From Bacillota bacterium (GTDB lineage: Bacteria; Bacillota; SHA-98; UBA4971): a stretch of 64,000 bases of DNA. Position numbers and translations under genes: made by a program. Each line of letters opens with the position of its first letter. Position 1 is the first letter of the stretch. The stretch is taken from assembly GCA_024653485.1 (NCBI GenBank), contig JANLFY010000003.1:112686-176685 (forward strand), given 5' to 3'. This document shows positions 39,105 through 64,000 of the stretch, piece after piece. Below the pieces are notes generated by a model. The model worked only from the letters and a program-made list of their open reading frames with translations, did no database searches and was not told the origin of the DNA.

Positions 39105-39115
39105 GGGCGCCCCGG

Positions 39116-39943: not shown

Positions 39944-39967
39944 ACCTTGCTCACCCCTCGCCGAATT

Positions 39968-40567: not shown

Positions 40568-40602
40568 GTGGTATTCCTCCTGTCACGGTTCGCCGTGCGG
40601 CG

Positions 40603-42775: not shown

Positions 42776-42817
42776 TTATCGATCCCCCCACAAGCGAACG
42801 CGCTTACAGCGCCTGGC

Positions 42818-44883: not shown

Positions 44884-44923
44884 TCAACGTCCCCCCACGC
44901 GCTGCCCCGCCTGGCCGCGATGC

Positions 44924-48875: not shown

Positions 48876-49227
48876 GTCTCTCCTCCTTGTCCCTCGTGCC
48901 AGGCCGCAGCGCCTCTGTGCGCTGCGGGCTGACGGTATCCCCAAGGCCGCCCTCTCAGTTCGTGAGGCTTCACTCTGTCCCTTTCTGTTCCTTGCTGTTA
49001 CGCTGCGGGTACGCCGGACCCGCCTTCGCACGGGAAAGCACTGTTCCGCTCTGGCCCCGCGGCAAGAGGGGAGCGCCTCCCGGGCCGGAGGGCAACCGCC
49101 CGCAGGCCGATTGTCATCCCCGCCCCCAAACGGTTCCGCGAGTCACCGACGTACACGACCGCCACGTGGCCTCGCGATCGACTCCCTAACGGAAGATCTC
49201 ACGCTAACGGAAGATCGCACGCGCACA

Positions 49228-49863
49228 TCACAAATAGTACGCCAGGTGCATGAGCTCCACGCTCAGGTCGGTATTGTGGAGACGCACGCCTTCAGGGACT
49301 CTCAGCTTCACGGGGGCGAAGTTCAGAATGGCTTCTATCCCCGCCCCTACGCAAGCATCGACAACCCTTTGAGCCGCCTCCGCTGGAACAGCAACTATTG
49401 CCATCTTGATCTGGCGGTCGCGAGCAGTCTCCGCGATCCTGTCCACGTGATGTACTGGAACGTCACCCACCTTCTTGCCGACCTTGGACGGGTCCACGTC
49501 AAAAAGCGCCGCGAGGCGGAGATGGTAGTTCCTTTCGACGGCCCGCCGTCCAATGACGTATCGCGCCAACGCCTGCCCCAGGCCGCCTGCCCCCACTATG
49601 GCCACGTTTATCTCCTTGTCGAGATTGAGCACCGATCGGAGCTCGCTGCGAAGCACGCCTATCTGGTATCCCACACCCTGCTTCCCGAAACCGCCGAGGA
49701 AGTTGAGATCCTTGCGCACTTGCGCGGGGGTAACGCCAGCTCTCTCCCCTAGCTCAAACGAGGATATGAGACCCCCGTGGACTTCCTCGTCCACCGCCTC
49801 GAGCACTCGGAGGTACACTGGCAGCCGTCTGATGACAACGTCCGGAACCCGCAGTCTCCTCAA
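49228..49863 (-). CDS. rex: Redox-sensing transcriptional repressor Rex
   Basis: MRRLRVPDVVIRRLPVYLRVLEAVDEE... winged helix plus Rossmann NADH-sensing domain (VAIVGAGGLGQAL), 211 aa. Confidence 0.9.
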   Translation of the reverse strand: MRRLRVPDVVIRRLPVYLRVLEAVDEEVHGGLISSFELGERAGVTPAQVRKDLNFLGGFGKQGVGYQIGVLRSELRSVLNLDKEINVAIVGAGGLGQALARYVIGRRAVERNYHLRLAALFDVDPSKVGKKVGDVPVHHVDRIAETARDRQIKMAIVAVPAEAAQRVVDACVGAGIEAILNFAPVKLRVPEGVRLHNTDLSVELMHLAYYL

Positions 49864-50179
49864 ACGTCACACCCCCCCAAGAGAAATCGCAGCTTGTCCC
49901 GCGTCACCAGTATAGCACACCTGACAGCCCGACGGGCAACGGGTCGCTCCCACGCAGCGTATTCGACACTTCTACCGCTCCTCCTTCCCAACGCCGCTCA
50001 GGCCGATTCAGGCACCACAGAACGTCAATCCCCGGAGTGCCGGGCTACCGAGCGGCATGTGGGCGTCGCGACTCTCGCTTGCGCGCGCCTGGGCCACGGG
50101 CCTTTCTTTCACGCTGACGTCTGAAGGGGCAAAGCCCGTCTCGTGTGCAAGTTGAACCCTCCAGACCCGTCAACTACAA

Positions 50180-50208
50180 GGGGCGGCGCTACCGAGCTGC
50201 GCCGCCCC
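50180..50208 (-). terminator. Hairpin GGGGCGGCGC-N9-GCGCCGCCCC ~130 nt downstream of hydA
   Basis: 10-bp GC stem seen directly. Followed on the minus strand by UUGUAGUU. Confidence 0.4.
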
Positions 50209-50337
50209 TGCCGTTCTCCGCTACCGGGCCGTTCCAATGTCGCTCAACCCTTGGGGTTTCCGCCCTCGAGGTTCACGCCCCGGGATCGCCATCGCCATGC
50301 CGGTGCACGGCACGGCGCGCGCACCGCTCACCCACCA

Positions 50338-52095
50338 TCAGCCTGCGGCCTCCGCGCACGCCTGCCCCGCCACCGAGGGGTACTTGTCCCTCGGGGTGTA
50401 GTGAGTGTGCAGCAGTCGATGTGACACTTCTCCCAGCGGCTCGCCCAGGAACTCGGCGTATATTTGTTTTATCGCCGGGTTCTCGTGGGACTTTCGGTAG
50501 GGCAGTCCCTTGTCGGCCTCGTACAAAGCGTTCCCGCGGATCAACCTAGTCTCCATGGTCGTTGGGATCGGCTGTCCGCCTCCTCCTACGCATCCGCCCG
50601 GACAACACATTATCTCTATGAAATGGTAGTTCGCCTTGCCCTGGCGCAGTAGGTCCAGGATCTTCTTGGCGTTTCCGAGGCCGTGCGCTACGGCGACCCT
50701 GACATCCAGGTCTCCCACCTTGACCTGCGCCTCTTTGATGCCCTCGAGCCCTCTGACCTCCTCAAAGTCGATCCTGGGAAGCTCGTTTCCGGTGGCGACT
50801 TCGTACACCGTTCGCAACGCCGCTTCCATCACGCCACCAGTCGCGCCGAAGATCGCGGCCGCTCCCGTGGAGATCCCCATCGGGTCATCGTGCTCCTCTT
50901 CAGGAAGGTCTTCGAAGCGGATGCCCGCCTCGCGCAGCATCCTCCCCAGCTCACGGCTAGTGAGCACGACGTCGACGTCCTTGTACCCTGAGTCGCGCAT
51001 CTCAGGTCTGTCGGCCTCGTACTTCTTCGCGGTGCAAGGCATGAGCGACACTGAGAAGATATCCTTCGGGTCGATGCCGGCCTTGCGCGCGTAATACGTC
51101 TTGACGAGGGCTCCGAACATCTGTTGAGGCGACTTGCATGTGGATACGTGTTTGAGCAAGTCTGGGTAGAAGTGTTCCCCGAACTTGATCCACCCTGGGC
51201 TGCAAGAAGTTATGAGGGGAAGCACGCCGCCCTCCTTCAGCCTCTTGAGGAACTCGTTGCCCTCCTCGATGATCGTCAAGTCCGCCGTGAAATCCGTGTC
51301 CATCACGCGGTCGAACCCCAGCCTCCGGAGGGCGGCCACGAGTTTGCCCGTGATAATCCGCCCGGGCGGCAATCCCATTTCCTCGCCGATGCTGACTCGG
51401 GTCGCCGGGGCGGTCTGGACCACCACGTGCTTGTTTGGATCGGCGAGCGCCCGCCACACGCGTTCGGTGTCGTCCCTTTCCGCAATGGCGCCAACAGGGC
51501 ACGCGTGGATGCACTGCCCGCACAAGGCGCACGCTACCTCGTCGAGCTCCCTCGCAAACACCGGCGTTACCTGCGTATCCACTCCTCGGCGCGACGGAAA
51601 GAGCACCCCGGCCGCCTGCACGTCGTGGCACATGGATACGCAACGGCGGCAGAGAATGCACTTGTCGGGCTCCCGGACTATCGCCGGAGTTGAGTGGTCT
51701 TCGGGAAGTCCGCGCAGCTTGCGTTCGAACCGTATCTCCCTCATCCCGAACCGCTCAGCGAGCGCCTGGAGCTCGCAATTGCGGTTTCTCACGCACTGGA
51801 GGCAATCTTGAGGGTGACGGGCGAGGAGAAGCTCGAGGTTCAGCTTCCTAGCCTGCCGGACCCTTGGCGTGTTGGTGTACACCACCATCCCATCCTGCAC
51901 CGGAAAGGCGCACGCAGGCTGGAGCAGCTTCTGGCCCTCGATATCAACCACACATATTCGGCAGACGGCCTGCACTGCGAGATCTGGATGGTGGCACAGC
52001 GTGGGGATGTCCACGCCGAGCTTCTTAGCGGCGTCCAGGATGCTTGTGCCGGCATCCACTTCGACCTTCCGGCCGTCTATCGTCAGCACTGCCAT
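50338..52095 (-). CDS. hydA: [FeFe] hydrogenase catalytic subunit (HydA, NADH-dependent bifurcating type)
   Basis: N-terminal 2Fe-2S ferredoxin-like and 4Fe-4S domains. H-cluster motifs TSCSPGW, MPCTAKKYE and EIMCCPGGCVGGGGQP. Start at the internal M (MAVLTIDGRKVEV). Confidence 0.9.
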   Translation of the reverse strand: MAVLTIDGRKVEVDAGTSILDAAKKLGVDIPTLCHHPDLAVQAVCRICVVDIEGQKLLQPACAFPVQDGMVVYTNTPRVRQARKLNLELLLARHPQDCLQCVRNRNCELQALAERFGMREIRFERKLRGLPEDHSTPAIVREPDKCILCRRCVSMCHDVQAAGVLFPSRRGVDTQVTPVFARELDEVACALCGQCIHACPVGAIAERDDTERVWRALADPNKHVVVQTAPATRVSIGEEMGLPPGRIITGKLVAALRRLGFDRVMDTDFTADLTIIEEGNEFLKRLKEGGVLPLITSCSPGWIKFGEHFYPDLLKHVSTCKSPQQMFGALVKTYYARKAGIDPKDIFSVSLMPCTAKKYEADRPEMRDSGYKDVDVVLTSRELGRMLREAGIRFEDLPEEEHDDPMGISTGAAAIFGATGGVMEAALRTVYEVATGNELPRIDFEEVRGLEGIKEAQVKVGDLDVRVAVAHGLGNAKKILDLLRQGKANYHFIEIMCCPGGCVGGGGQPIPTTMETRLIRGNALYEADKGLPYRKSHENPAIKQIYAEFLGEPLGEVSHRLLHTHYTPRDKYPSVAGQACAEAAG

Positions 52096-52139
52096 AGGCG
52101 CATCACTCCTTCCGTCTCTCCTGCTCGAGCCTGGCGGGT

Positions 52140-53750
52140 TCATATCCCGCACGTCCCGGTGGGACAGAGCCTCTCGTGCACGTGCGCGTGGAACTCATCA
52201 CGGAAGTACTTGAGCATGGTCTTGATAGGGACGGGCGCCGACTGACCCAGGCCGCACAAGGATGTTGCCTGCATCGCCGCGCCAAGTTCCTCGAGTAACT
52301 CGAGGTCGCCCGGCTGCCCGTCGCCCCGGGCGATCTTGTCGACGATCTCGTAGAGACGCGCGGTACCCTCCCGGCACGGCGTGCACTTGCCGCACGACTC
52401 GTGCTTGAAGAACTCCATGAAACACCTGGCGATGTCGACTATGCAGTGACTGTCGTCCATGATGAGGAGGGCGCCAGAGCCGAGCGCCGACCCGTGCTCA
52501 GGCAGGGTAAAGTAGTCCATCGGCACGTCCAGCAACTCCTTGGGGAGGCATCCCCCTGAAGTCCCGCCCGTCTGGGCCATCTTGAAGCCCCTGCCCCCTG
52601 GTATTCCCCCGCCTATCTCGAACACCACGCGGCGCAGCGTTATCCCCATGGGCACCTCGATGAGCCCCTTGTTCTTGATATCCCCGGTGAGAGTGAAGAC
52701 TTTGGTTCCAGGGCACCTCTCGGTGCCGACTCGCCGGAACCATTCAGGCCCGTTCAAGAGAATGGGCGGGATGTTGGCGAGCGTCTCGACGTTATTGACC
52801 ACAGTGGGCTTCCCGAACAAGCCCTCCGTCCCAGGATATGGCGGCTTCACTCTGGGCTCACCGCGCTTGCCTTCGATCGACTCTATGAGGGCGGTTTCCT
52901 CTCCGCACACATACGCCCCCGCGCCCTTCCTTATCTCAACATCAAATGAGAAGCCGGTGCCGAAAACGTTCTGTCCGAGGAGGCCAAGGGCCCTTGCCTG
53001 CTCTATGGCCTTCCCCAGCCTCTCGATGGAGAGCACGTACTCTCCTCTCACATACACGAAACCCTTGTCCGCTCCCACCGCATAGCCCGCTATGGCCATT
53101 CCCTCTAGTATGCTGTGGGGATCTCCCTCAAGGATCAGGCGGTCCTTGAAAGTGCCTGGTTCCCCCTCGTCGGCATTACACAGAATGTACTTTTGGTCGG
53201 CTCCGGCCTTCGCAGTGAAACTCCACTTCAGGCCCGTTGGAAACGCCGCGCCCCCTCTGCCGACGAGCCCAGACTTCTTCACAGCCTCGATGACGTCCGC
53301 GGGCTTCATCTCTGTGAGGCACCTCGCAAGTGCCCTGTAGCCGTCACGCGCGATGTACTCCTCGATGGATTCGGGATCTATCACTCCGCAGTTACGCAGG
53401 ACTATCCGTTCTTGCACCCCGAGATATTTCGGTTCCTCGTACTTCACGACCCCCGCCTGCGGCGCCTCGCCAACAAGCCGTGCCACGACTCTCCCTTTCA
53501 GGAGGTGTTCCTCGACTATGTCGGGGACGTCGGAGACGCGGACCTTCTGATACAGCGTGCCCTCAGGATAGACGACGATCACGGGCCCTAAGTCGCAAGG
53601 CCCCAGGCAGCCGGTTTCGACCACCTTCACTTCCCTCTCAAGCCCTCGCCGCTGCACCTCGGCTACGAGCGCGTCGCGCACTCCCTTGCAGCCCTCGAGC
53701 ACGCACGGGGTCCCTCCACAGACCAGGACGTGCGAACGGTAGAACTCCAC
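52140..53750 (-). CDS. hydB: Hydrogenase subunit HydB (NuoF-like NADH-binding, FMN, Fe-S)
   Basis: GRGGAAFPTGLKW...CNADEGEPGTFKDR NuoF signature with C-terminal ferredoxin-like Cys motifs, 536 aa. Confidence 0.9.
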   Translation of the reverse strand: MEFYRSHVLVCGGTPCVLEGCKGVRDALVAEVQRRGLEREVKVVETGCLGPCDLGPVIVVYPEGTLYQKVRVSDVPDIVEEHLLKGRVVARLVGEAPQAGVVKYEEPKYLGVQERIVLRNCGVIDPESIEEYIARDGYRALARCLTEMKPADVIEAVKKSGLVGRGGAAFPTGLKWSFTAKAGADQKYILCNADEGEPGTFKDRLILEGDPHSILEGMAIAGYAVGADKGFVYVRGEYVLSIERLGKAIEQARALGLLGQNVFGTGFSFDVEIRKGAGAYVCGEETALIESIEGKRGEPRVKPPYPGTEGLFGKPTVVNNVETLANIPPILLNGPEWFRRVGTERCPGTKVFTLTGDIKNKGLIEVPMGITLRRVVFEIGGGIPGGRGFKMAQTGGTSGGCLPKELLDVPMDYFTLPEHGSALGSGALLIMDDSHCIVDIARCFMEFFKHESCGKCTPCREGTARLYEIVDKIARGDGQPGDLELLEELGAAMQATSLCGLGQSAPVPIKTMLKYFRDEFHAHVHERLCPTGTCGI

Positions 53751-53780
53751 GGGCGCAAACCTCCCTTCTTGGCGTAGGCG

Positions 53781-54260
53781 TCACTTGTACTCCTTCAGGA
53801 TCAGCGGGACCCTTTCGGGAGTGAGGTTGCCGTAGACTGCCTCGTTGATCATGATGGCCGGCGCGACACCGCAAACCCCGAGGCAACTCGTGTACTCGAG
53901 CGTGAACCTGCCGTCGCTGGTTGTACCTCCCATCGGGATGCCAAGCTCCCTCTCGAGCGCCTCAACCACGGCTCGTGCCCCCCTCACGTGGCACGGAGCG
54001 TTCTCACAAACGCGCACTATGTACCTGCCTTTGGGTCTCGTTGAGAACAACGTGTAGAACGTCGCGACGCCGTACACCTTGGACACGGGGATGTCGAGTT
54101 CGGAAGCGATCTCTGTCATGGCTTTCTCTGAAACGTAACCTGCTTCTTTCTGAACATCGTGAAGGATCGACACGAGGGCGTCAGGTCTGCGAGAATACTT
54201 TGCCAGGATTTCGCTGACTCTGGTCGAGCAAATGCCCGGATCTCCCGCCGCTCGCTCCAT
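53781..54260 (-). CDS. hydC: Hydrogenase subunit HydC (NuoE-like [2Fe-2S] thioredoxin-like)
   Basis: NuoE-like ORF with CENAPC...C...C[2Fe-2S] motif (VRVCENAPCHVRGA ... SCLGVCGVAP). Start at the internal ATG with GGGGAAGAGAGC RBS. Confidence 0.85.
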   Translation of the reverse strand: MERAAGDPGICSTRVSEILAKYSRRPDALVSILHDVQKEAGYVSEKAMTEIASELDIPVSKVYGVATFYTLFSTRPKGRYIVRVCENAPCHVRGARAVVEALERELGIPMGGTTSDGRFTLEYTSCLGVCGVAPAIMINEAVYGNLTPERVPLILKEYK

Positions 54261-54292
54261 GCTCTCTTCCCCCCTTTCCCCTAAGACGCGCT

Positions 54293-54664
54293 TCACGCGC
54301 TGGCTATGACCCACTCTCCTACAACCTGGCCGTTGACTATGTGGCTCGCCACAATCTGGCGCGCCCTCTCCTTGCTCACCTTCCCATAGGTCACCTTTGC
54401 GGCACCGGGCTTGATGACGTCCACGATGGGCTCTTGCTCGCACAGACCCACGCAGCCGGTTTGGGTGACCACGACGTCCTGGATGTTCCTCTTCGCGAGC
54501 TCATCTAGGATCGCGGAAAGCGTCTCCCTTGCCCCAGCGGCGATTCCGCACGTGCCCATTCCCACGACGATCCTCGTCGTCTCCCTGCCCTCCCTCAGCC
54601 TTGTCATGGCCTGAGCCTGTTTTCTGATTCGCTCCAGCTCCTCAACGGTCTTCATCGCAGACAC
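54293..54664 (-). CDS. Thioredoxin-like [2Fe-2S] ferredoxin (hydrogenase-associated)
   Basis: 123 aa with Cys pattern GMGTCGIAAG ... GCVGLCEQEP, first gene of the hyd structural operon. Confidence 0.7.
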   Translation of the reverse strand: MSAMKTVEELERIRKQAQAMTRLREGRETTRIVVGMGTCGIAAGARETLSAILDELAKRNIQDVVVTQTGCVGLCEQEPIVDVIKPGAAKVTYGKVSKERARQIVASHIVNGQVVGEWVIASA

Positions 54665-54742: not shown

Positions 54743-54760
54743 TTGCGCCTTACTTCACAA
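54743..54760. promoter_or_regulatory. Candidate Rex operator (degenerate): TTGCGCC-TTAC-TTCACAA
   Basis: 11/14 match to the Firmicute Rex box TTGTGAA-N4-TTCACAA with a perfect right half-site, ~80 nt upstream of the hyd operon start. Confidence 0.3.
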
Positions 54761-54910: not shown

Positions 54911-55342
54911 TCATTCTCTGCCCACGATCCGTGTGATCTCCGCCCGGAACCGTGCTGGGTTCACACGCCTGTCGTAAGTGTACACGAGGCTGTACGACGC
55001 GGCGAGCAGCGCCAGGCCGAAAATCACGCCTAACAGGGAGGCCGCGCCCGATCTCCCGGCCGACCGAGCGAGGACGGCGCCAAGGTATATGCCCGCCATC
55101 ATGAAGAAGAGCGGGATCATGTACGCGATGAACGCCGCCCCCAACACTCTGGAGCTTTCGAGCTCGAGAGCCACCTCATCACCCGGGCGGGCGCCGATCG
55201 CATTCGTCGCTTCCACCACCATTCTGTCGGCGCGGCCCAGACCGCACGCCCCGCAGTGGCGGCACGCCTCATGGCGCGTGACTTCCACTTTGGCCAGCCC
55301 TCCGGACACCTCGATCACCCTACCGCGTTCTTCCACGAACAA
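54911..55342 (-). CDS. RseC/MucC-family Fe-S/membrane protein (SoxR-reducing system-like)
   Basis: 143 aa, N-terminal CRHCGACG cysteine cluster and C-terminal TM helices. Confidence 0.6.
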   Translation of the reverse strand: MFVEERGRVIEVSGGLAKVEVTRHEACRHCGACGLGRADRMVVEATNAIGARPGDEVALELESSRVLGAAFIAYMIPLFFMMAGIYLGAVLARSAGRSGAASLLGVIFGLALLAASYSLVYTYDRRVNPARFRAEITRIVGRE

Positions 55343-55375
55343 CCAGCCTCCGCAACGACCCCTCGCTCACCAGAC

Positions 55376-55921
55376 TCACGCACGCTGGACCGGTTCCAGG
55401 CCCTGTCGGATAAGGTCCTTCACGACGCCCGCAAGGGCCGGGGTGGTCGGAGGGATGTCTCCCAGAGCCCTCCGAAACTCCTCCGAGTCGAAAGAGAACC
55501 ATCTAGCCCCTCTCCTGTGAGTATACCTGAACCTCACTTCAGGATTGCACACGACGAGGAGCGCGAGCGTCCCCGCCATGTCGCCCAGGGGGGCTCTGTC
55601 GATGCTGTCAAGCCTGAACGTGGCTCGCACCTCCGTTCCGCGCCCCGGTTGCGACTTGATGGCTAGGTCGCCCCCGGCGGCTCTCGCGGCCTCGCGGAAA
55701 AGAGGAAGCCCGAGCCCTACCTTGCGGGAGGTCCGCGACGTGTAAAAGGGGTCCAGCACGACGCTTAGTATCTCCGGCGGAACGCCGACACCATCGTCAG
55801 AGACCTCTATCGAGAGAAGGCCTGACTCCTCATCCTCCGAGACCGTCACGTCTACCGTCTTCGCCCCCGCAGCAATGGAGTTTTGAACTATGTCCAGGAC
55901 GTGCAAGGAAAGCTCCCGCAC
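55376..55921 (-). CDS. Histidine-kinase-like ATPase (HATPase_c only) of the hydrogenase sensory cluster
   Basis: N-box LHVLDIVQNS, G1 SDDGVG and G2 GLGLPL. No HisKA domain. GTG start with GGGAGG RBS. Confidence 0.6.
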   Translation of the reverse strand: MRELSLHVLDIVQNSIAAGAKTVDVTVSEDEESGLLSIEVSDDGVGVPPEILSVVLDPFYTSRTSRKVGLGLPLFREAARAAGGDLAIKSQPGRGTEVRATFRLDSIDRAPLGDMAGTLALLVVCNPEVRFRYTHRRGARWFSFDSEEFRRALGDIPPTTPALAGVVKDLIRQGLEPVQRA

Positions 55922-55940
55922 ACCGCTGCCTCCCTGTCGG

Positions 55941-56720
55941 TCATTCCACCGGCCGCGCGGCCCGCCCTTCGACTCCCGCGAGCGCCAGCCTGATCTCATC
56001 CAAGGTCGGTCTGTCCAGCACAAACGCGGTATACCCGCGGATCTCCTCCAGCCTGTGGGCGTCAGAGGATACCACGATCGGAAACGCCGCAAGCTGGGGG
56101 AACATCTCCCTCGCACGCCGGGCTCCCAGCCTCGGAGAGACTTCCAGTGCATCGGGGCGGAGACCGGGAGGCACGAGGCCGAGGTTCCGGACGAGGCTGA
56201 AAGACGGTCTGTCCACGTGCGCGGGGACTACCAGCCCCCCGAGTTGCCGCACGCGCTCTCCCACATAGTCGATGGTCATACCCGTCGAAGCGAGGAGAAG
56301 CCTGGACAATCTCCCCGTCTGGTAACCTCGCGAGTCGAGTATGATCTGCTCCCCGAACCTCGCTTCATCGTTCTCCACGTCAGGAAGGCTCGCGTACACT
56401 TCCTCCTGCCAGCGAAAAAGGGCCCGCGGGTCATCGAACAGCGCAAGGACGTGGACGTCCTCCCGCGTCTGCACCTCCATCCCGCACAGCACCACCACCC
56501 CCGCCTTTGCGCCACTCTGGGCAACCGCGAGAGTGTTCTCCGCGGAGTTGTGGTCACAGATGCCGATGAGTCTCACTCCTCTTTCGGCGGCGGCCTCCAC
56601 TATGGCAGGCGGGGACATCTCGGCCTCTGCGCAAGGGGACAAAGCGGTATGCACGTGAAGGTCCGCAAGGTACAACTCCAACGACACGGCCGCCCATCCC
56701 TCCCGCGCTCCGTGGGACAC
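55941..56720 (-). CDS. PHP-domain phosphoesterase (hydrogenase sensory cluster)
   Basis: ADLHVHTALSPC...IGICDHNS PHP motifs. Precise start uncertain. Confidence 0.65.
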   Translation of the reverse strand: MSHGAREGWAAVSLELYLADLHVHTALSPCAEAEMSPPAIVEAAAERGVRLIGICDHNSAENTLAVAQSGAKAGVVVLCGMEVQTREDVHVLALFDDPRALFRWQEEVYASLPDVENDEARFGEQIILDSRGYQTGRLSRLLLASTGMTIDYVGERVRQLGGLVVPAHVDRPSFSLVRNLGLVPPGLRPDALEVSPRLGARRAREMFPQLAAFPIVVSSDAHRLEEIRGYTAFVLDRPTLDEIRLALAGVEGRAARPVE

Positions 56721-56752
56721 CCCTGCTCGCTCGTCAGAGCGGGCTAGGGCTT

Positions 56753-57106
56753 CTAGAGTCGGCCTCGTATCCCCGCCGCGTACAGGCGGCCCACGACCTC
56801 GAAGGCCGGCAGAGCAGTCTTGAGGAGTGGGATCCCCTCCTCTTCGGCTCTCCTTACTGCTTGGGGCTGACACTCGACCGCTCCCGCGACGATGATGGCC
56901 GCAAGCCCCACCAACGTCGCCACTGCGACTATGTTCTCGTGGGCTTGAACGGTCACCCAGATGTCACCGTCGCGGGCGTGCGCGATCACGTCGCTTAGCA
57001 GGTCCGACACGTACCCGCACCGTATCTCGGTGTCCAACCCGCCCGCGCCAGCCTCGACAGAGCACTCCAGCAAGTCAAGGACGTCCTGCACTGTCACGTC
57101 TTCCAC
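56753..57106 (-). CDS. DRTGG domain protein
   Basis: 117 aa, CGYVSDLLSDVIAHARDGDIWVTVQAHENIVAVATLVG, typical small DRTGG proteins associated with HydS clusters. Confidence 0.6.
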   Translation of the reverse strand: MEDVTVQDVLDLLECSVEAGAGGLDTEIRCGYVSDLLSDVIAHARDGDIWVTVQAHENIVAVATLVGLAAIIVAGAVECQPQAVRRAEEEGIPLLKTALPAFEVVGRLYAAGIRGRL

Positions 57107-58456
57107 TCACCCTTTGCCCACGTCCGCCTCGCGTTGGGCGCTCATGGCAGACGGGTTCTTCTTCGCGAGGTCGAAGAGTTGCTCCGCAAGTGCCTTCACC
57201 TGGTCTCGAAGCTTGAAGACGCAGTCGGTGTCAACTGCTAGACCCTGCACGATGTCCTCGGCGAGCGCCCTGCAGTGCGGCGATCCACACGACCCACAGT
57301 CGAGACCTGGCAGGTCCTTCACGACCCTCTCCATCATCTCTGCCTTGGAGATCGCCCTGGACACGTCGTGGTCGAGTCGGAACGCAGGAACTGCGGCGAT
57401 GTCCTGGCGCATGTCGAAGTAGCCTTCGTAGGCGCGCCGCGCAAGGTCTTCCTCTTCCTCGGCTGTGAAAGCCTTCACACCCGCGAACTTCTTCGCCAGC
57501 CTTGCCAGATGCACGTGGGCGATGAAAGGATTGCGCACGGCGAGAGCCCCGCCTACGCAGCCACCGATGCACGCCTGAGCCTCAACGAAATCCACGTCGG
57601 TCAGCCTGCCCACCTCGATTTCCTCGAGCACACGGATAACGCTGTGGATGCCGTCGACCACCAAGTAGTTTTCCAGCCCGACAGCGGCGTTCTCCCCACC
57701 GGTCCCTCCCCAGCCGATTCCCGCCCCCGAAGATCTGCGCCTGGGCGGCGGCGCGGTCTGGCTCGCCAACCGGCGTGCTATCTCGCCGTACACGTCAGTC
57801 ATGGAGACCACACCATCTACTGCGTTGAAGCCCCGGTTCGACGCCTCACGCACCCATGTCACCTTCGCCGGGCACGGGGTGATGAAGAACGTCCCGATTT
57901 CTTTCGGTTCGATTCCGAGTTCTCTCGTCTTGCTCTCTTTGGCGAGCTTACCCGCACACGCCATTGGGGAGTCAACGGGAATCAAGTGGTCTATGAGCGA
58001 CGGAAACCTCACCTGTATGAGCCTCACTACGGCGGGACAAGCGGCAGAGATCATCGGTCGAGTCTCTCGGTGCCGCCGAAGGTACTCGCGGGTCACGAAG
58101 GTAGCAACGTCCGCTCCGCGCGCGACTTCGAACACGTCGTCGAAGCCCATGTCGACCAGGGCTGCGAGCACGCGGTCTGGGTCCACGTCCGGCCCGAACT
58201 GCGCATAGAGCGCGGGGGCGGGAAGCGCGATGGTATACCTGAATTCCCGTAGCCGCTCCAGCGAATCCGTGATGGCCGTCTTCGCGTGGTTATCGCAGGT
58301 CCTTATGCACTCCCCGCAATCGATGCACCGCTCCGCGTTGATTCTGGCCTTGCCCTGCCTCACCCTTATGGCTTCGGTAGGGCAGTTCTTTATGCATCGC
58401 GTGCATCCTCGGCATTTCTCTTCGATCAGGAGGACCGAGTGGAACAGGCCGGTCAT
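57107..58456 (-). CDS. Sensory [FeFe]-hydrogenase-like protein (HydS/HfsB-type; H-cluster domain-like with N-terminal 2x[4Fe-4S] and C-terminal Cys4 motif)
   Basis: N-terminal CRGCTRCIKNCP / CIDCGECIRTCD ferredoxin motifs. Hydrogenase large-subunit-like core (FITPCPAKV, QACIGGCVGG). C-terminal CGSCGSPHC. No small-subunit or electron-transfer partner genes of its own. Confidence 0.7.
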   Translation of the reverse strand: MTGLFHSVLLIEEKCRGCTRCIKNCPTEAIRVRQGKARINAERCIDCGECIRTCDNHAKTAITDSLERLREFRYTIALPAPALYAQFGPDVDPDRVLAALVDMGFDDVFEVARGADVATFVTREYLRRHRETRPMISAACPAVVRLIQVRFPSLIDHLIPVDSPMACAGKLAKESKTRELGIEPKEIGTFFITPCPAKVTWVREASNRGFNAVDGVVSMTDVYGEIARRLASQTAPPPRRRSSGAGIGWGGTGGENAAVGLENYLVVDGIHSVIRVLEEIEVGRLTDVDFVEAQACIGGCVGGALAVRNPFIAHVHLARLAKKFAGVKAFTAEEEEDLARRAYEGYFDMRQDIAAVPAFRLDHDVSRAISKAEMMERVVKDLPGLDCGSCGSPHCRALAEDIVQGLAVDTDCVFKLRDQVKALAEQLFDLAKKNPSAMSAQREADVGKG

Positions 58457-58884
58457 GTCAGACTTCCTTTCGAGGGAAGGTTGATGATCATTCTGACGCT
58501 AGTGCCCCGCCCTACAGTGGACTCGATCCGGAATTCGTCGGAGTACCTCTTCATATTGGGCAAGCCCAGTCCGGCTCCGAACCCCATCTCCCGAACGTGC
58601 TCCGGTGCTGTGGAGTATCCCTCCTGCATCGCAAGGTGTATGTCTGGAATACCAGGACCCTCATCGTCCGCCGCGATCTCGATCCGCTCGGGAGAGATCT
58701 CAACGGTGAGGACTCCACGGAACGCGTGGATGACTATGTTCATCTCGGCTTCGTACGCCACGATCGCGGCCCTGCGAGCGGTCTCCGCGTCGACGCCAAC
58801 TTGCCGCAATGTTCGCTTGAGCTTCGCCGCAGCCTCCCCCGCCGCTTGAAAGTCCCCGCCTGCGACCTTGCACTCCATGCGCAT
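58453..58884 (-). CDS. Anti-sigma-factor-like Ser/Thr kinase ATPase (HATPase_c, SpoIIAB/RsbW-like)
   Basis: MRMECKVAGGDF...NIVIHAF...DDEGPGIPD...GFGAGLGLPNMKRYSDEF. Start at the internal M. Confidence 0.6.
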   Translation of the reverse strand: MRMECKVAGGDFQAAGEAAAKLKRTLRQVGVDAETARRAAIVAYEAEMNIVIHAFRGVLTVEISPERIEIAADDEGPGIPDIHLAMQEGYSTAPEHVREMGFGAGLGLPNMKRYSDEFRIESTVGRGTSVRMIINLPSKGSLT

Positions 58885-58888
58885 CGCG

Positions 58889-59422
58889 CTAGCCACCACC
58901 CGCAACGCGCGTCCTGGCGTCCTCGCACCCGGCTCTGGCGGTGGCGCTCGCACCCGCGCCCCCGCCGGCAGCGGGGGCACTCGCTCGAGAGTCCTGGCCG
59001 TCGTGAGAGTCTGCGACTCCCTCTCCACTGCTTTCCGCCCCGACGCCGGGCGTTCCATGGTCTTCAGCTCTCGGCCATGCGCACTTCCCGCGCAGGCCAG
59101 CCTCGAACAGAAGGCCGGCGGATTCGTACAGAGGGTACGACGTGCATAGAATGGGGATGCCGGCCTCCGCCGCCATGGCCACGATCTCTGCCGTGGGCCT
59201 CTTCCCGCGCACAAAGACGATGCCCGAGAGATCCATCATCTCGGCCGCACGTATTATCTGAGACGTGACAAGCCCCGTGAGAACGAGCATCCTTGCCTTC
59301 GTGAAGGCCAGCAGGTCGCTGATGAGGTCACATCCGCACGCACCTTCGATCTCCTCGTCGAGCTTGTCCTCTCCTGTAAGAACCGTAGCATCGAGAACCC
59401 TCATGACATCGCGCAGCCGCAA
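58889..59422 (-). CDS. DRTGG domain protein (second copy) with low-complexity C-terminal tail
   Basis: MRLRDVMRVLDATVLTGEDKLDEEIEGACGCDLISDLLAFTKARMLVLTGL... The G/A/S-rich tail after ~117 aa may not be translated. Confidence 0.55.
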   Translation of the reverse strand: MRLRDVMRVLDATVLTGEDKLDEEIEGACGCDLISDLLAFTKARMLVLTGLVTSQIIRAAEMMDLSGIVFVRGKRPTAEIVAMAAEAGIPILCTSYPLYESAGLLFEAGLRGKCAWPRAEDHGTPGVGAESSGEGVADSHDGQDSRASAPAAGGGAGASATARAGCEDARTRVAGGG

Positions 59423-59510: not shown

Positions 59511-60056
59511 CTAATGGATCACTACCACGGAATAGCCTCTCTCCTCGATTTCGTCGGCAAGTCGCTCCGCGTTGGCTCTGTCCGCGAAAGCCCCCACTTG
59601 GACCCTGTAAGGCGCGCCCCCGGTCACGAACCCAGGGTACCCTGCTTTGCCGAGCTCTCGAGCTAGGGCTTCGGCTCCAGTCCTGTCGTCAAACTCGCCG
59701 ACCTGGACCCGGTACAGCGTCTGGCCACCGGACGCTGCCGGCACCTGGGCCACCGGCGTCGACCCTTCGGTCCCGGTCATACCGGTTCCGCCAGCCTGAG
59801 ATGGTGCCGCTTCGGGCGCGGCCGCTCCCGCCTGACCGGATGGTGTCGATCCGGCGTCGCCCAGAGACCCTGCGGGAGAGATCTGGTCTGTCTCCTGAGC
59901 GACCTCGTTGCCAGCGGACCCGGGACCGGACGTGAGAAGGCCGAAAGCGTACTTGCCCATGAGAACGCCGAGCCCGATGGCGAACGCCGCCATCACCGCG
60001 AGCATCAGCACCATGGACAGGCTCTGACCTACCCTTCCCCTTCTCTCAGGCATCAT
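59511..60056 (-). CDS. SPOR-domain protein (peptidoglycan-binding, N-terminal TM anchor)
   Basis: Two SPOR-like repeats YRVQVGEFDDRTGAEALARELGKAGYPGFV and YRVQVGAFADRANAERLADEIEERGY, with a TM helix and Gly/Ala/Ser linker. Confidence 0.7.
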   Translation of the reverse strand: MMPERRGRVGQSLSMVLMLAVMAAFAIGLGVLMGKYAFGLLTSGPGSAGNEVAQETDQISPAGSLGDAGSTPSGQAGAAAPEAAPSQAGGTGMTGTEGSTPVAQVPAASGGQTLYRVQVGEFDDRTGAEALARELGKAGYPGFVTGGAPYRVQVGAFADRANAERLADEIEERGYSVVVIH

Positions 60057-60086
60057 GGATACCCCCCTCAGTCTTCTGATACTATA

Positions 60087-62120
60087 CTACTCCCAGGTGC
60101 GAGCACATTCCTCCCGTGTGCGGCCACACTCTGAATCGCGCGCCCATGGCGGGCGCATGTGCAGCTCGATCGGCACCACCCGCGTGTTGCGAATACCACC
60201 GTCCAACTTCGCGAGAACGTCGGGGGTCGCGCACGCGAACACCACGGGGAGGTTGCGCCTTGCGGCTAGCTCGTGCGCGAGTCGGGTACCCCGCAGCACG
60301 TCGCGCGGGGTGGTCTCGTCCCCCATGTGCGTGTTGCTCACGATCCCGGTGAAAGTCAGCCCGGAGGCCTCCTCAATCGACTCCAGCATGTCTTCGGCAC
60401 CCTCAACGTCCCTTGTGAAAGGCCGGTTGGCATTGACCACGAAGAACATGTCGTAACCCGCCCCCTCGAAGTGGGCGGAGTACCTCGCCAACGCCCTCGC
60501 TCCGACGGGGTCTCCGCCCACATCGAAGACTATTGTCGCGGTCTCGTCGTGGAAAGCCCGAAGAATCGCCGGAGCCAGGGCCGGCAGGTCCGCCGCCTCG
60601 AACCCGGGAGCAGACGATATTACCTCCACGCCCCGGCTTTCCATCTCTCGGGCAGCTTCGCGCGACCTGAAGTAGGGATTCACAATGTCCAAATCGACCA
60701 CGACCACGCGGGCGCCGTCCCGCCGCTTCAAGCTGGCGAAGTTGAGGGAGACTTCCGTCTTGCCCGATCCATAGGCGCCGGTGAAGACCACTATCCTTCG
60801 TGTCATGGGGAGGGTGCCCGCAATTGACAGGAGGTGATTTCTCACCTCGCCCACCAAGTACAGAGACCCGCACACGAGGAGCACACCGTCATGCCCCGCG
60901 CACTTCAGCCCTTCGTCCACTGCTTCCACTGCGTTCTCCCTCACCAGACCCGGGCAACCCGCGCGCAGCGCAAGTGAGACTATGGAGCGCGGATCGACGG
61001 CTCCCAAACGCGATGACGAGGCGGTCGTCGCTATCACCTGCGACGCGAAACCCGCCACCTCGCGCACCATGTCCTCCACCTGTTTGTCCCTGGAGATCCC
61101 GACGACCGCTGTGACCCGCCGCCCTCCAGTTACCTCCGGAACAGCCAGGGCGAGCCTTCTCACACCATCCAGGTTGTGAGCGCCGTCGACCATCACCAGA
61201 GGGCGTCTCTGAAGCACCTCCAGCCGCCCGGGCCACTCGACAAGCTTGAATCCTCGCTTCACGGCCTCCCGAGTCAGATGGACTCCGATACCGCCAAGGA
61301 CCTGCGCGACCCCTACGACGCATGCGGCGTTCTCCACCTGGTGCTGGCCAAGGAGCGGGATCTCGAACTCTCCGAAATCGCGACCGCGTACCCACGCGCG
61401 AAATCTTTGCCCCTCCTCGTTGCAGGAGGTGCGCTCGCAGTGAACGTCTTCGCCCACGACTAGGGCGGGGGCGGCCCTCTCAGCGGCCGCTCGCTTTATC
61501 ACCTCGAGCGCCGGGGGGTGCTGCACCCCGACTACCACGGGCACTCCCCGCTTGATGATGCCCGCTTTCTCGCCGGCGATCTCTTCTATCGTGCCGCCGA
61601 GTCTTTCGCGGTGATCCAAGTCAACGTGAGTGATGACGGACACGAGCGGCGTAATGACGTTCGTGGCGTCCAGCCTGCCGCCCAGACCCACCTCTATCAC
61701 GGCGTAGTCCACGCGCTCTTCCGCAAAATACAGGAATGCCATGACTGTGCCCATTTCGAATTCGGTCGGCGCGCCCAATGACGACTGTGAGGCCATCCTC
61801 TCGAAATGGGGCCGCAGTGTGGTGACGAGTTCCGCCAGGCGCCTCCTCGGCATGGGCCTGCCGTCAACTCGTATGCGCTCGGTGTACGACGATAGGTGGG
61901 GAGACGTGTACAGCCCAACGCGGAACCCCGCGGCGCGAAGCACTGAAGCCGTCATGGCCGCGACCGAACCCTTGCCGTTGGTTCCCGCCACGTGGACGGC
62001 CTTCAGCTTGAGATGGGGCAAGCCTGTGGCATCGAGTAAGGCGAGAGTCCGGTCGAGGCCGAGGCTTACTCCGAACTTCCCCAGGTTGTGCAGGAATGTG
62101 ATGGCCTCTTCGTACTCCAT
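60087..62120 (-). CDS. folC: Folylpolyglutamate synthase/dihydrofolate synthase FolC fused in-frame to a C-terminal ~239-aa P-loop NTPase domain of unknown function
   Basis: N-terminal ~435 aa is a Mur-ligase-type FolC (HVAGTNGKGSVAAM, ...GSLYLVGEVR). It continues without a stop into MTRRIVVFTGAYGSGKTEVSL...VVVVDLDIVNPYF...FDVGGDP...FFVVNANRP. Start chosen at MEYEEAITFLH (62120); the track ORF extends to 62216 and overlaps nth. Confidence 0.7.
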   Translation of the reverse strand: MEYEEAITFLHNLGKFGVSLGLDRTLALLDATGLPHLKLKAVHVAGTNGKGSVAAMTASVLRAAGFRVGLYTSPHLSSYTERIRVDGRPMPRRRLAELVTTLRPHFERMASQSSLGAPTEFEMGTVMAFLYFAEERVDYAVIEVGLGGRLDATNVITPLVSVITHVDLDHRERLGGTIEEIAGEKAGIIKRGVPVVVGVQHPPALEVIKRAAAERAAPALVVGEDVHCERTSCNEEGQRFRAWVRGRDFGEFEIPLLGQHQVENAACVVGVAQVLGGIGVHLTREAVKRGFKLVEWPGRLEVLQRRPLVMVDGAHNLDGVRRLALAVPEVTGGRRVTAVVGISRDKQVEDMVREVAGFASQVIATTASSSRLGAVDPRSIVSLALRAGCPGLVRENAVEAVDEGLKCAGHDGVLLVCGSLYLVGEVRNHLLSIAGTLPMTRRIVVFTGAYGSGKTEVSLNFASLKRRDGARVVVVDLDIVNPYFRSREAAREMESRGVEVISSAPGFEAADLPALAPAILRAFHDETATIVFDVGGDPVGARALARYSAHFEGAGYDMFFVVNANRPFTRDVEGAEDMLESIEEASGLTFTGIVSNTHMGDETTPRDVLRGTRLAHELAARRNLPVVFACATPDVLAKLDGGIRNTRVVPIELHMRPPWARDSECGRTREECARTWE

Positions 62121-62134
62121 TAAGGCTTTCTTCG

Positions 62135-62824
62135 CTATAGCTGAGCGTTTTCCTTCCCCGATCGACATTCGGGAGCGAGCGGGCACCCGTCGCACTTGGG
62201 CCTTTGCGGCCTGCATCGGCGCCGTCCGTGAGAGATCATGTTGACGTGCATGGAGTACACGAGTTCCGGAGGGATCCGTGCCCCCAGGACTTCATGAGCA
62301 GATTCCGCTCCACACCTTGCGTGCACCAACCCGAGGCGCTTCGCCACCCGCAGAACGTGCGTGTCCACGGGGAACACGGGAAGACCGCACCCAAAGAGTA
62401 GAGTGCAGGCACAGGTCTTGGGGCCGACGCCTTCGAAAGACAGGAGGTATTCCCTGGCCGCCTCCACACCGAGTCCCGCGAGGAAGTCTAGGGATAGACG
62501 CCCCCTCTCGCGATGCAGGCGCTCCAGTATCCGTTTTATCCTGGCCGCCTTGACCCGGGCAAGGCCACCTTCCCTTATGGCCTCAGCGACCTCGTCCACA
62601 TCGGCCTTCCTCACGCACTCCCACGAGGGAAACCTTTCCTTCAGCCTTCGAAACGCCCTCTCGGAGTTGACGTCGGACGTATTCTGGGAAAGCACAGTCG
62701 CCAGGAGGGTGTCCAAGGGGTCCTCCCTTCTTGGGCGAGGACCCCCGTACGCCTCCTCTAGAAGCGCCGCGATTCGCCGCACTCGACTGTCGAGGTCGTC
62801 GTGACTTGTGGTGTCCAATCTCAC
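62135..62824 (-). CDS. nth: Endonuclease III family DNA glycosylase (HhH-GPD, [4Fe-4S])
   Basis: LLATVLSQNTSDVNSERAF...GVGPKTCACTLLF...FPVDTHVLRVAKRLGL and C-terminal CRPQRPKCDGCPLAPEC cluster. Confidence 0.8.
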   Translation of the reverse strand: MRLDTTSHDDLDSRVRRIAALLEEAYGGPRPRREDPLDTLLATVLSQNTSDVNSERAFRRLKERFPSWECVRKADVDEVAEAIREGGLARVKAARIKRILERLHRERGRLSLDFLAGLGVEAAREYLLSFEGVGPKTCACTLLFGCGLPVFPVDTHVLRVAKRLGLVHARCGAESAHEVLGARIPPELVYSMHVNMISHGRRRCRPQRPKCDGCPLAPECRSGKENAQL

Positions 62825-62855
62825 GCCTCCGCTGATCAGACTCTCGCGGTCGCCG

Positions 62856-64000
62856 TCAGGCCCTTAGGTCCTGAAGAAGGGCCGCGAGACGCTCCCGCTT
62901 TTCGGCGTACTCCCCCCGCCGCGCCCTCTCTCGATCGATGACCTCCTCTGAGGCCTTCTCCAAGAACCCCGGGTTCGAGAGCTTGCGCTCCGCTGCCTCC
63001 AGCGCCGCCTCGGCCGCCCTCATGTCCCTTTCCAGGCGCCGAATCTCCGACTCCAAGTCGATAATGCCCCCAAGCGGCACGTATACTTCGACCCCGGCCA
63101 CAACCGCGTGGGCCGCCTTCTCCGGCTTGTGTTCAAGCTCCTTCTCAACTCTCAGCCTCTCCAGACCGGCTAAGCGCATCACGAGGTCCCGGCCCGTCTG
63201 CAGGGCTTGCGCCGTCCTGCCCTCCGCCACCGCGACCGCGGCGACCTTCTTCTGAGCGGGCACGTTCATTTCGGACCTTATACTGCGGATGGCTCTCGTT
63301 ACGCTCATGATGGTGACCATTTCCGCCTCCGCGTCAGGATCGTCCAACCTTTCTTCGAACGTTGGCCAAGCCGATACCATGACGCTGCCGGACGTCCCGG
63401 GCAGCCTCCGCCAAATCCCCTCTGTAATGAACGGCATGAATGGGTGAAGCAACCGAAGAACCTTCCCCAACGTCTCCCAGAGCACGAACCTCGCGGTCGA
63501 GCGGGCCAGGTCGTCGCTTCCGTACAGACGCGCCTTGGAGATCTCGATGTACCAGTCGCAGAATTCATCCCACGTGAAGTCGTACAACGCCCGTGCGGCC
63601 TCACCGACCTCGTACGAGCGGAGGTGCGAGTCCACCTCTTGCGCCACCCTGTTCACTCTGCTGCGAATCCACCTGTCAGCAGGAAGCAAGCGCAAGGCCC
63701 TCTCGTCGACATTCGCCGGATCGAAGTCGCCCAAGTTCATCAGGACGAACCTGGCAGCGTTCCATAGCTTGTTCGCGAAGTTCCGGCTGGCCTCGAGACG
63801 CTCCTCGCGGAACCGCATGTCATTCCCAGGGGTGTTCCCGCTGACAAGGGTGAATCTCAGCACGTCCGCGCCGCACCTGTCCACGACCTCCAGAGGATCT
63901 ACTCCGGTGCCTAGAGACTTGCTCATCTTCTTCCCGCTCGCTGCCCTCACGAGCCCATGGATGAACACGTCGCGGAACGGAACGTTCCCCATGAACTCGA
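62856..64000 (-). CDS. valS: Valine--tRNA ligase, C-terminal part (gene continues beyond window)
   Basis: KMSKS motif (GKKMSKSLGTGVDP), anticodon-binding domain and C-terminal coiled-coil (EIRRLERDMRAAEAALEAAERKL). The reading frame is open past position 64000. Confidence 0.85.
   Translation of the reverse strand, partial: EFMGNVPFRDVFIHGLVRAASGKKMSKSLGTGVDPLEVVDRCGADVLRFTLVSGNTPGNDMRFREERLEASRNFANKLWNAARFVLMNLGDFDPANVDERALRLLPADRWIRSRVNRVAQEVDSHLRSYEVGEAARALYDFTWDEFCDWYIEISKARLYGSDDLARSTARFVLWETLGKVLRLLHPFMPFITEGIWRRLPGTSGSVMVSAWPTFEERLDDPDAEAEMVTIMSVTRAIRSIRSEMNVPAQKKVAAVAVAEGRTAQALQTGRDLVMRLAGLERLRVEKELEHKPEKAAHAVVAGVEVYVPLGGIIDLESEIRRLERDMRAAEAALEAAERKLSNPGFLEKASEEVIDRERARRGEYAEKRERLAALLQDLRA

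Follow-up and report, generated by a model that had tools for sequence, protein, structure and literature searches.

A putative group D sensory [FeFe] hydrogenase module upstream of bifurcating-type hydABC genes in a Bacillota genome

The 64-kb window analyzed here, a stretch of contig JANLFY010000003.1 of the Bacillota bacterium assembly GCA_024653485.1 in which all positions are counted from the first letter, carries at 54911–59422 a gene module built around HydS, a protein of the [FeFe] hydrogenase family encoded upstream of the hydrogenase operon hydABC. The diagnostic residues and domain architecture of HydS leave little doubt that the locus is a sensory-hydrogenase module of group D (M2e, TamHydS-type), and HydS itself is probably a sensor rather than a metabolic enzyme. 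An earlier sequence-only reading had proposed a putative H2-sensing module upstream of a bifurcating-type hydABC with Rex nearby; this proposal is borne out by our analysis, and Pfam annotation agrees with the domain descriptions given there. Comparison with related genomes, however, places the window as an ordinary member of a known, widespread and mechanistically unsolved module. To the explanation that we favor overall, a canonical group D locus whose accessory proteins would relay the H2 signal through a partner switch, we assign a probability of roughly 55%.

HydS and its assignment to group D

HydS opens with 2 [4Fe-4S] motifs (C15/18/21/25 and C44/47/50/54, with several Fer4 Pfam matches), continues with an Fe_hyd_lg_C domain matched over profile positions 3 to 245 of 245, and ends with C387-x2-C390-x4-C395-x16-C412 (Cx2Cx4Cx16C), the Cys4 motif that the sequence-only reading had noticed. 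The same reading called the H-cluster-like domain complete, which holds for the 4 cluster ligands, C140, C195, C296, and C300, all of them intact here and invariant in the family alignment, but not for 3 further positions: the proton-relay Cys299 (CpI numbering) is replaced by A139 (ISAACP; ISSACP in TamHydS), Met353 by T193 (ITPCPAK; ISPCAAK in TamHydS), and Met497 by Gln294 (Leu in TamHydS). Among the other key residues, K198 is present, and T252, E255, D268, and E292 match, with a constant offset of +3, residues S249, E252, D265, and E289 of TamHydS, which form an alternative proton path specific to group D (PMC10407848); of these, E255, D268, and E292 do not vary across the family alignment. 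No PAS family was detected in HydS by a Pfam scan (E up to 0.01), and only 37 residues follow the last cysteine. Loss of Cys299, Ser or Thr in place of Met353, and Cx2Cx4Cx16C without a PAS domain are the published criteria for group D (PMC8163306), and each of these features is found in HydS.

Consistently, the TamHydS coding sequence aligns colinearly with residues 5–443 of HydS in a tblastn comparison, with segment identities of 44% and 57%, values that are approximate because the published sequence contains frameshifts from optical character recognition. More than 7,900 homologues of HydS (E up to 1e-10) were present among the candidates scored. In PDB, no solved structure of group C or group D was found, the best matches of HydS being catalytic HydA proteins (E ~1e-26). 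The replacements exchange the group A proton relay for that of group D, so that HydS should bind H2 and slowly turn it over. For TamHydS, reversible H+/H2 interconversion with a low turnover rate and a high affinity for H2 has been described (PMC8163306), and H2-induced changes of secondary structure have been reported. The altered active site, together with this low activity and structural response of TamHydS, and with the signaling-type gene company and output-domain fusions described below, is the reason for considering HydS a sensor.

The conserved gene set and its fusions

The 7 regulatory genes that the sequence-only reading had placed upstream of hydABC are indeed present as tightly packed genes with the domains claimed (Table 1), separated by intergenic gaps of −4 to 65 nucleotides (nt). 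All genes across 49–60 kb lie on the minus strand, and the order along transcription is DRTGG1, HATPase-1, HydS, DRTGG2, PHP, HATPase-2, RseC, ferredoxin, hydC, hydB, hydA, and rex. The module therefore begins with DRTGG1-HATPase-1-HydS and not, as first described, with HATPase-DRTGG-HydS; likewise, rex does not directly follow the module, but is found behind hydA across a gap of 474 nt. The chosen gene starts match full-length homologues as well as the independent NCBI and JGI gene calls; the DRTGG1 gene is called by JGI and missing from the NCBI record, and its TTG, GTG, or ATG start is kept in the 5 closest loci of the comparison described below (L001–L005). The start codon of DRTGG2 directly abuts the stop codon of HydS. 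In NCBIfam, no protein of the module passes any model, every match remaining below the cut-off.

Table 1. Genes of the HydS module, the hydrogenase operon and adjoining genes, in the order of transcription (positions in the 64-kb window).
Gene	Position	Strand	Length (amino acids)	Family match or remark
SPOR-domain gene	59511-60056	-		neighbor upstream of DRTGG1
DRTGG1	58889-59422	-	177	PF07085, E 4.9e-9
HATPase-1 (HATPase_c_2)	58453-58884	-	143	PF13581, E 3e-11
HydS	57107-58456	-	449	two Fer4 motifs; Fe_hyd_lg_C, E 1.7e-37; PF04060, E 2.4e-11
DRTGG2	56753-57106	-	117	PF07085, E 8.6e-7
PHP-family metal-dependent phosphoesterase	55941-56687	-	248	PF02811
HATPase-2 (HATPase_c, no HisKA)	55376-55921	-	181	PF02518, E 3.6e-19
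RseC/MucC-family membrane protein	54911-55342	-		PF04246, E 1.6e-28
Thioredoxin-like [2Fe-2S] ferredoxin	54293-54664	-	123	weak PF01257 match
hydC	53781-54263	-		Pfam
hydB	52140-53750	-		Pfam
hydA	50338-52095	-		Pfam
rex	49228-49863	-		NCBIfam NF003995, 240 bits against a cut-off of 126; Pfam Put_DNA-bind_N and CoA_binding

Relatives were collected by a one-genome-per-species scan, which yielded at least 588 stretches, and 80 loci (L numbers) were fetched with 10-kb flanks and annotated by phmmer using the window proteins as queries, with counts limited to loci that retain enough flank. These loci belong to Bacillota and to genomes labeled Armatimonadota, Coprothermobacterota, Syntrophorhabdales, and Atrimonadaceae. 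Upstream of HydS, HATPase-1 is found in 75 of 76 loci and DRTGG1 in 65 of 76, with 5 further loci in which DRTGG1 is fused to HATPase-1; downstream, DRTGG2 is present in at least 65 of 76 loci and PHP in 67 of 76. HATPase-2, HydC, and HydB follow in 51 of 64 loci each, and the ferredoxin and HydA in 47 of 64 each. The commonest order is DRTGG2-PHP-HydC-HATPase-2-ferredoxin-HydB-HydA, of which the PHP-HATPase-2-ferredoxin-HydC order of the window is a minority variant. Within this set of loci, RseC is limited to the clade of the window (L001–L005) and L062, and is a lineage-specific addition.

The module consists of 2 layers, a sensor core (DRTGG1-HATPase-1-HydS-DRTGG2-PHP) and a pair of HATPase-2 and ferredoxin linked to hydABC. 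In 8 loci, hydABC does not follow the 5-gene core; the core of L014, for instance, stands between valS-SPOR and the mraZ-mraW cell-division cluster. HATPase-2 and the ferredoxin, which adjoin each other in most loci, were seen only together with the HydS core and are mostly embedded in the structural operon, and additional hydABC copies in the same loci lack the pair.

The presence of 2 DRTGG and 2 HATPase proteins, which the sequence-only reading regarded as special to this locus, is real but turned out to be the norm in related loci. DRTGG1 and DRTGG2 are ancient, full-length paralogues (hhalign probability 99.9%, E 7e-34), each with a signature of its own, and the pair is kept across phyla. 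The conserved residues of DRTGG1 include D32, L33, S35, T49, G50, and L51, and the signature of DRTGG2 comprises Y32, D35, L36, L37, S38, W50, T52, H56, and N58. The 2 HATPases belong to different GHKL subfamilies and overlap only in the C-terminal portion of the ATP-binding fold (69 columns in hhalign). A local duplication of DRTGG and HATPase genes was also considered and ruled out, the set being canonical in the 80 loci and the HATPases not being duplicates of each other.

Gene fusions provide the most informative hints on which proteins may work together. In some lineages (proteins P0025, P0033, P0040, P0048, and P0050), HydS is fused to a segment that follows the Cys4 domain and bears the DRTGG2 signature (Y..SDLLSD, W.T...H.N). 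The locus with such a fusion, L081, has no separate DRTGG2 and retains DRTGG1, HATPase-1, PHP, HydC, HATPase-2, and the ferredoxin. In L008–L012, DRTGG1 and HATPase-1 form a single protein of 269–270 amino acids, with rex directly upstream. Furthermore, 2 loci from Thermanaeromonas and Moorellaceae metagenome-assembled genomes (L023:11080-13359 and L036:13026-15281) encode, right after hydA of a group D-linked hydABC, proteins of 751–759 amino acids in which a HydS-type core (two Fer4, Fe_hyd_lg_C, and the PF04060 Cys4 domain) is fused C-terminally to a sigma-54 interaction domain and a Fis-type helix-turn-helix (HTH) domain; such a protein would combine an H2 sensor and an enhancer-binding protein in a one-component regulator. 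In L060 (11398-13311), the domain fused to a HydS-type core is an MCP (chemotaxis) signaling domain; the gene lies directly behind that of a group D HydS lacking DRTGG2 and PHP. Since DRTGG2, a sigma-54 activator with HTH, and an MCP domain are all found fused at the same place, the position following the Cys4 domain can be viewed as an output port. This suggests that DRTGG2 of group D sits at that port, like PAS in group C, and is a candidate transmitter. The fusions similarly suggest DRTGG1 as a candidate partner or substrate of the HATPase-1 kinase, and we infer, from the alignment, S35/T49 of DRTGG1 and the corresponding S38/T52 of DRTGG2 only as candidate phospho-acceptors. When PDB was searched by sequence with the DRTGG proteins, no informative match emerged (AF_1212, E 1.1).

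Among proteins of solved structure, HATPase-1 is closest to the anti-sigma F factor SpoIIAB (E 3.4e-8) and to RsbW; its match to the SpoIIAB model TIGR01925 (E 5.8e-16) is below the model cut-off. Motifs conserved at 90% or more comprise the N-box (E45/N49/H53), the G1 box (D74-x-GPG), and the G2 box (GFGAGxGLPN). HATPase-1 is thus a SpoIIAB/RsbW-class GHKL protein and a putative Ser/Thr kinase or anti-sigma-like switch. SpoIIAB-SpoIIAA-SpoIIE and RsbW-RsbV-RsbU are partner-switching modules, with which the window shares a small GHKL kinase carrying an E-x3-N-x3-H N-box and encoded beside a small candidate antagonist and a phosphoesterase. The antagonist in those modules is a STAS protein and the phosphatase a PP2C, whereas their places in the window are taken by DRTGG and PHP, with no sigma factor in the conserved neighborhood. 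HATPase-2 combines HATPase_c with a conserved alpha/beta extension of about 80 amino acids at the C terminus, an architecture shared uniformly by over 100 homologues. Both HATPases have invariant ATP-binding motifs, and the metal ligands of PHP are invariant as well. No fusions of HATPase-2 or PHP were found, the top 120 homologues of each being all of single-domain size.

HydA matches solved chains of HydABC-type enzymes (7q4v_A, E 1e-201; 8a6t_A, E 4e-193), of which 8a6t is labeled an electron-bifurcating hydrogenase subunit, and hydABC encodes a group A [FeFe] hydrogenase of the bifurcating type, which is presumably what the module regulates. The ferredoxin matches the 2Fe-2S ferredoxin model NF041612 (E 2.6e-12, below cut-off), with C39, C71, and C75 conserved; we take this small protein to be the counterpart of HydD. 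The L1 motif of HydA, TSCSPGW (51100-51200; TSCCPxW in textbooks), was considered as an abnormality and rejected, being present in 54 of 58 related HydA proteins and in 7q4v_A.

That group D hydrogenases are associated both with kinases and with bifurcating hydrogenases has already been published, with Caldicellulosiruptor, Caldanaerobacter, C. thermocellum, and Thermoanaerobacter as cases in which the protein is encoded upstream of a bifurcating hydrogenase with a kinase nearby (PMC3561251, PMC3608648, PMC8163306). At the TamHydS locus of Thermoanaerobacter mathranii (Tmath_0862), HydS has the same architecture and diagnostic residues as in the window, and its gene likewise precedes those of a bifurcating-type hydrogenase, close to a kinase-like gene. 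Tmath_0862 precedes the 5-gene set Tmath_0865-0869 with 2 genes in between, which we infer to be DRTGG2 and PHP, the 5-gene set corresponding to HydC-HATPase-2-ferredoxin-HydB-HydA. Further listed examples of group D are TTE0887, Cthe_0335, Athe_1292, and Teth39_1463. Compared with TamHydS-type loci, the window has HATPase-2 in front of the ferredoxin and hydC instead of between hydC and the ferredoxin, an inserted RseC gene, rex downstream of hydA, and a long tail on DRTGG1. This Gly/Ala/Ser-rich, low-complexity C-terminal tail of about 60 amino acids (58889-59100), which brings the protein to its full length against a family median of 120 and ends 4 nt before the start of HATPase-1, is also found in L001 and L002 (175–176 amino acids) and absent from L004 and L005 (128 amino acids); the L003 frame is longer at the N terminus (225 amino acids) and uninformative on the tail. 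In literature on DRTGG and hydrogenases, the locus tags, and TamHydS, we found no study of the DRTGG, PHP, or paired-ATPase genes, which agrees with the earlier remark that the signaling logic is not established.

The sequence-only reading had likened the module to the HfsABCD/HydS clusters. Hfs belongs to group C, with a PAS-bearing HfsB, the serine phosphatase HfsC, and the ferredoxin hydrogenase HfsD (PMC11837493, PMC5707799). The enzymes of group C (M2f; TmHydS, R. albus HydS, and Thermoanaerobacterium HfsB) share with the window HydS a core of 2 [4Fe-4S] motifs, the H-domain, Cx2Cx4Cx16C, and the loss of the Cys299 relay, and they too have been proposed as H2 sensors beside catalytic hydrogenases. 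The likeness nevertheless did not hold, given that neither PAS nor PP2C is found and that all sequence criteria point to group D instead. Unlike group C, with its fused PAS, PP2C-type HfsC, and HfsD, none of which was found at the window locus, the window has DRTGG2, the SpoIIAB-like kinase, DRTGG1, and PHP standing in for them. Among the annotated window proteins, there is no HfsC- or HfsD-type protein, PAS, or sigma factor, and PAS, PP2C, and sigma factors are likewise absent from the neighborhood conserved in related loci; HfsA has no domain signature and was not searched for directly.

Rex, transcription units, and the gene neighborhood

The rex gene downstream of hydA is genuine. The Rex regulon controls hydrogenase genes in Clostridia and Thermoanaerobacterales (PMC5886521), and the window resembles that system in having a bona fide rex near hydABC, as do many related loci in having Rex-type boxes. 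Counted at no more than 2 mismatches in the upstream regions of the 80 loci, Rex-like boxes precede hydC in 17 of 57 cases, DRTGG1 in 9 of 45, and rex in 4 of 10, compared with 12 of 398 for all other genes. Based on these counts, sensor and structural genes appear commonly to form 2 Rex-controlled units across the family.

In the window, a promoter scan revealed a promoter-like site, TTGCCC-17-TATCAT with an upstream TG (54832-54804), in the 246-nt gap between RseC and the ferredoxin. The site is conserved in L001–L003, and about 40 nt downstream of it lies a degenerate Rex-like box, TTGTGAAGTAAGGCGCAA (54760-54743), which is conserved together with its flanks in L001–L005 and has only 2 mismatches in L004 and L005. 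Other candidate Rex operators in the window, of the actinobacterial/Thermus type or the clostridial consensus, have 2–3 mismatches, which is the chance level, and were rejected; the box at 54743-54760 was retained because of its conservation in L001–L005. By comparison with the clostridial regulon, this box is degenerate though conserved and is located upstream of ferredoxin-hydCBA, not of the sensor genes; its position corresponds to that of the boxes preceding hydC in related loci. The structural operon probably has a promoter of its own, and co-transcription with the sensor genes may also occur, as no terminator-like site was found between RseC and the promoter-like site. Upstream of DRTGG1, no conserved operator or promoter was identified in the window clade. 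The SPOR-DRTGG1 gap measures 32–88 nt in the window and 4 of its 5 relatives (198 nt in L003), and transcription of the SPOR gene may continue into the sensor genes. The earlier suggestion that hydABC integrates H2 and NADH/NAD+ sensing is accordingly reasonable for the family, in view of its Rex boxes, but the window contributes only a degenerate one.

Inverted repeats rich in GC are present in the 474-nt hydA-rex gap (49864-50337), which also has a weak terminator-like site just 5′ of rex; neither an Rfam match, an assignable open reading frame (ORF), nor a Rex box was found in this gap. At gathering thresholds, the sole Rfam match in the window is a tRNA (17119-17191), with none in the 246-nt gap either.

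On the downstream side, the hydrogenase genes are part of a long one-strand run of redox metabolism (37334-54664) composed of ferredoxin-hydCBA, rex, nfnAB, fhs, ndk, rnfC, and rnfD, 3 unannotated frames where other rnf genes would be expected, a gene for an RnfB-like Fe-S protein, and apbE. An RseC gene is found in front of rnfC in some acetogens; the sole RseC-family gene that we found in the window is the one within the hydrogenase module, not 5′ of rnfC. In 11 loci (L006, L023, L030, L032, L036, L041, L051, L054, L058, L067, and L081), HydB of group D-linked hydABC operons carries a fused pyridine-nucleotide oxidoreductase domain of the NfnB/GltD-like type and reaches about 1010 amino acids (e.g., L081:11908-14919). 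HydB of the window is unfused, and nfnAB is separate, downstream of rex.

On the upstream side (59511-64000), the run valS-nth-folC-SPOR leads into the sensor module, which stands right after a SPOR-domain gene in many loci of different lineages (L014, L017, L019, L020, L024, and L027). The folC frame of the window (60087-62216), with the M and C domains of Mur ligases, runs on into a CbiA/ParA-like P-loop NTPase domain in an ORF of 709 amino acids; the NCBI and JGI versions have 677–693 amino acids and identical domains.

A possible relay and its rivals

In the explanation that we favor, H2 would reduce the H-cluster of HydS, and the resulting conformational change would be relayed to DRTGG2. 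DRTGG2 and its paralogue DRTGG1 could then compete for the SpoIIAB-like HATPase-1 or be phosphorylated by it, in a partner switch that would employ DRTGG in place of STAS proteins and that PHP might reset, unless it hydrolyzes a nucleotide ligand. With no DNA-binding protein in the conserved module, the output on hydrogenase expression or activity would be exerted in trans, and Rex would add NADH/NAD+ control at separate promoters. The DRTGG/kinase details of this switch are tentative and, taken by themselves, stand at well below even odds. Equally speculative is the wider proposal that the 5-gene core represents an undescribed type of signaling cassette, in which DRTGG paralogues would be docked on an H2 receptor and on a kinase in the roles of STAS and PAS, PHP would replace PP2C, and the output would reach HydABC without a dedicated transcription factor, possibly via the HATPase-2/ferredoxin pair; the window would be an ordinary carrier of such a cassette and not its locus of discovery. 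A similar logic is known from the [NiFe] HoxBC/HoxJ/HoxA system of Ralstonia eutropha, in which a low-activity hydrogenase serves as H2 receptor and is likewise coupled to a GHKL-type kinase, which controls hydrogenase genes (PMC5707799, PMC8163306). HoxBC, however, belongs to an unrelated family with a different metal center, and works with a PAS-containing histidine kinase and a response regulator, whereas HATPase-2 has no DHp/HisKA domain and the window module no response regulator.

Several observations weigh against the relay. Across the 80 loci, transcription factors, sigma factors, STAS proteins, and PP2C phosphatases are all missing from the conserved module, which offers no evident output protein or established phospho-acceptor; a two-component pair precedes some reduced loci (L047) without being conserved. 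The fold of HATPase-2 is nearest to those of MutL, PMS1, TopoVI-B, and GyrB, ahead of histidine-kinase domains, so that of the earlier description "kinase-like, no HisKA," the ATP-binding motifs resembling those of histidine kinases and the lack of HisKA stand, and the overall fold is closer to MutL/GyrB. PHP is nearest to EndoQ, followed by RNase AM and the PolC PHP domain, and is remote from PHP protein tyrosine phosphatases. It resembles a nuclease or nucleotide phosphodiesterase, with pAp-phosphatase-type enzymes among its relatives, and the proximity to the nuclease EndoQ weakens the case for a protein-phosphatase role. The folds of PHP and HATPase-2 together make a picture of 2 kinases and 1 protein phosphatase insecure. 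As to HydS, H2 elicits no response from the C-terminal cluster of TamHydS, and the sensor label of group D is "putative" throughout the literature consulted, where no experiment ties such a protein to regulation. Finally, the Rex-like box of the window has 3 mismatches to the Rex consensus and is, by itself, not above chance. As a separate observation on PHP, its EndoQ-like fold is contained in 248 amino acids, compared with 400 residues for the EndoQ chain; beyond its PHP catalytic domain, EndoQ has Zn-finger and C-terminal domains, and these extra domains are absent here.

Many of the same observations favor the main rival, according to which the accessory proteins target the hydrogenase itself or a nucleotide ligand and do not form a phospho-relay for transcriptional control. 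HATPase-2 would be an ATP clamp or switch of the MutL/GyrB/Hsp90 kind, acting with the ferredoxin on the assembly or activity of HydABC, PHP would hydrolyze a nucleotide or a nucleotidylated species, and the DRTGG proteins would serve as adaptors that bind a ligand. Besides the folds of HATPase-2 (MutL, PMS1, TopoVI-B, and GyrB) and PHP (EndoQ, RNase AM, and pAp-phosphatase-type enzymes) and the lack of a DNA-binding protein in the module, this is consistent with the canonical place of HATPase-2 and the ferredoxin between hydC and hydB, inside the structural operon and downstream of the Rex box. It is also in line with the papers found on DRTGG domains, which deal with enzymes of metabolism and proteins under nucleotide control (CBS-pyrophosphatases, phosphotransacetylase, and an Ap4A-dependent adaptor). 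We nevertheless regard action at the enzyme level as rather unlikely when set against the favored relay.

Much less probable is that HydS is a second metabolic, ferredoxin-dependent hydrogenase with unrelated small genes as neighbors. All 4 H-cluster cysteines and both N-terminal [4Fe-4S] motifs are intact, and TamHydS does catalyze reversible H+/H2 interconversion; however, the rates of TamHydS are low, the proton-relay cysteine is Ala and both Met353 and Met497 are replaced in HydS, the same 5 signaling-type genes accompany HydS across phyla in overlapping or abutting frames and fusions, and in related cores, fusions add a sigma-54 activator or an MCP output domain. The sequence-only reading had itself named a plain second hydrogenase as the outcome that would overturn it, and HydS, lacking part of the catalytic proton-transfer equipment, does not fit that description. 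That the locus is an Hfs/group C-type system (PAS and PP2C), or an unusual local duplication of one, is highly improbable: both types pair a Cys4-bearing HydS-type hydrogenase with GHKL-type proteins near catalytic hydrogenases, but HydS has no PAS, with ~37 residues after its last cysteine, no PP2C is present among the annotated window proteins and no HfsD-type second hydrogenase in the window, the gene set is the group D norm and no duplication, and the 2 HATPases are of different GHKL subfamilies.

The question at stake is how [FeFe] "sensory" hydrogenases transmit the H2 signal. Although the window itself adds nothing unusual, the comparison narrows this question by defining a conserved core and setting apart the HATPase-2/ferredoxin pair linked to hydABC. 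On the basis of the fusions, DRTGG2 is the candidate transmitter, with DRTGG1 and HATPase-1 as candidates for the first pair downstream of it, and PHP and HATPase-2 are not obvious look-alikes of a protein phosphatase and a histidine kinase. The module is carried by tractable biofuel organisms, Thermoanaerobacter, C. thermocellum, and Caldicellulosiruptor, in which the control of flux to H2 versus ethanol matters.

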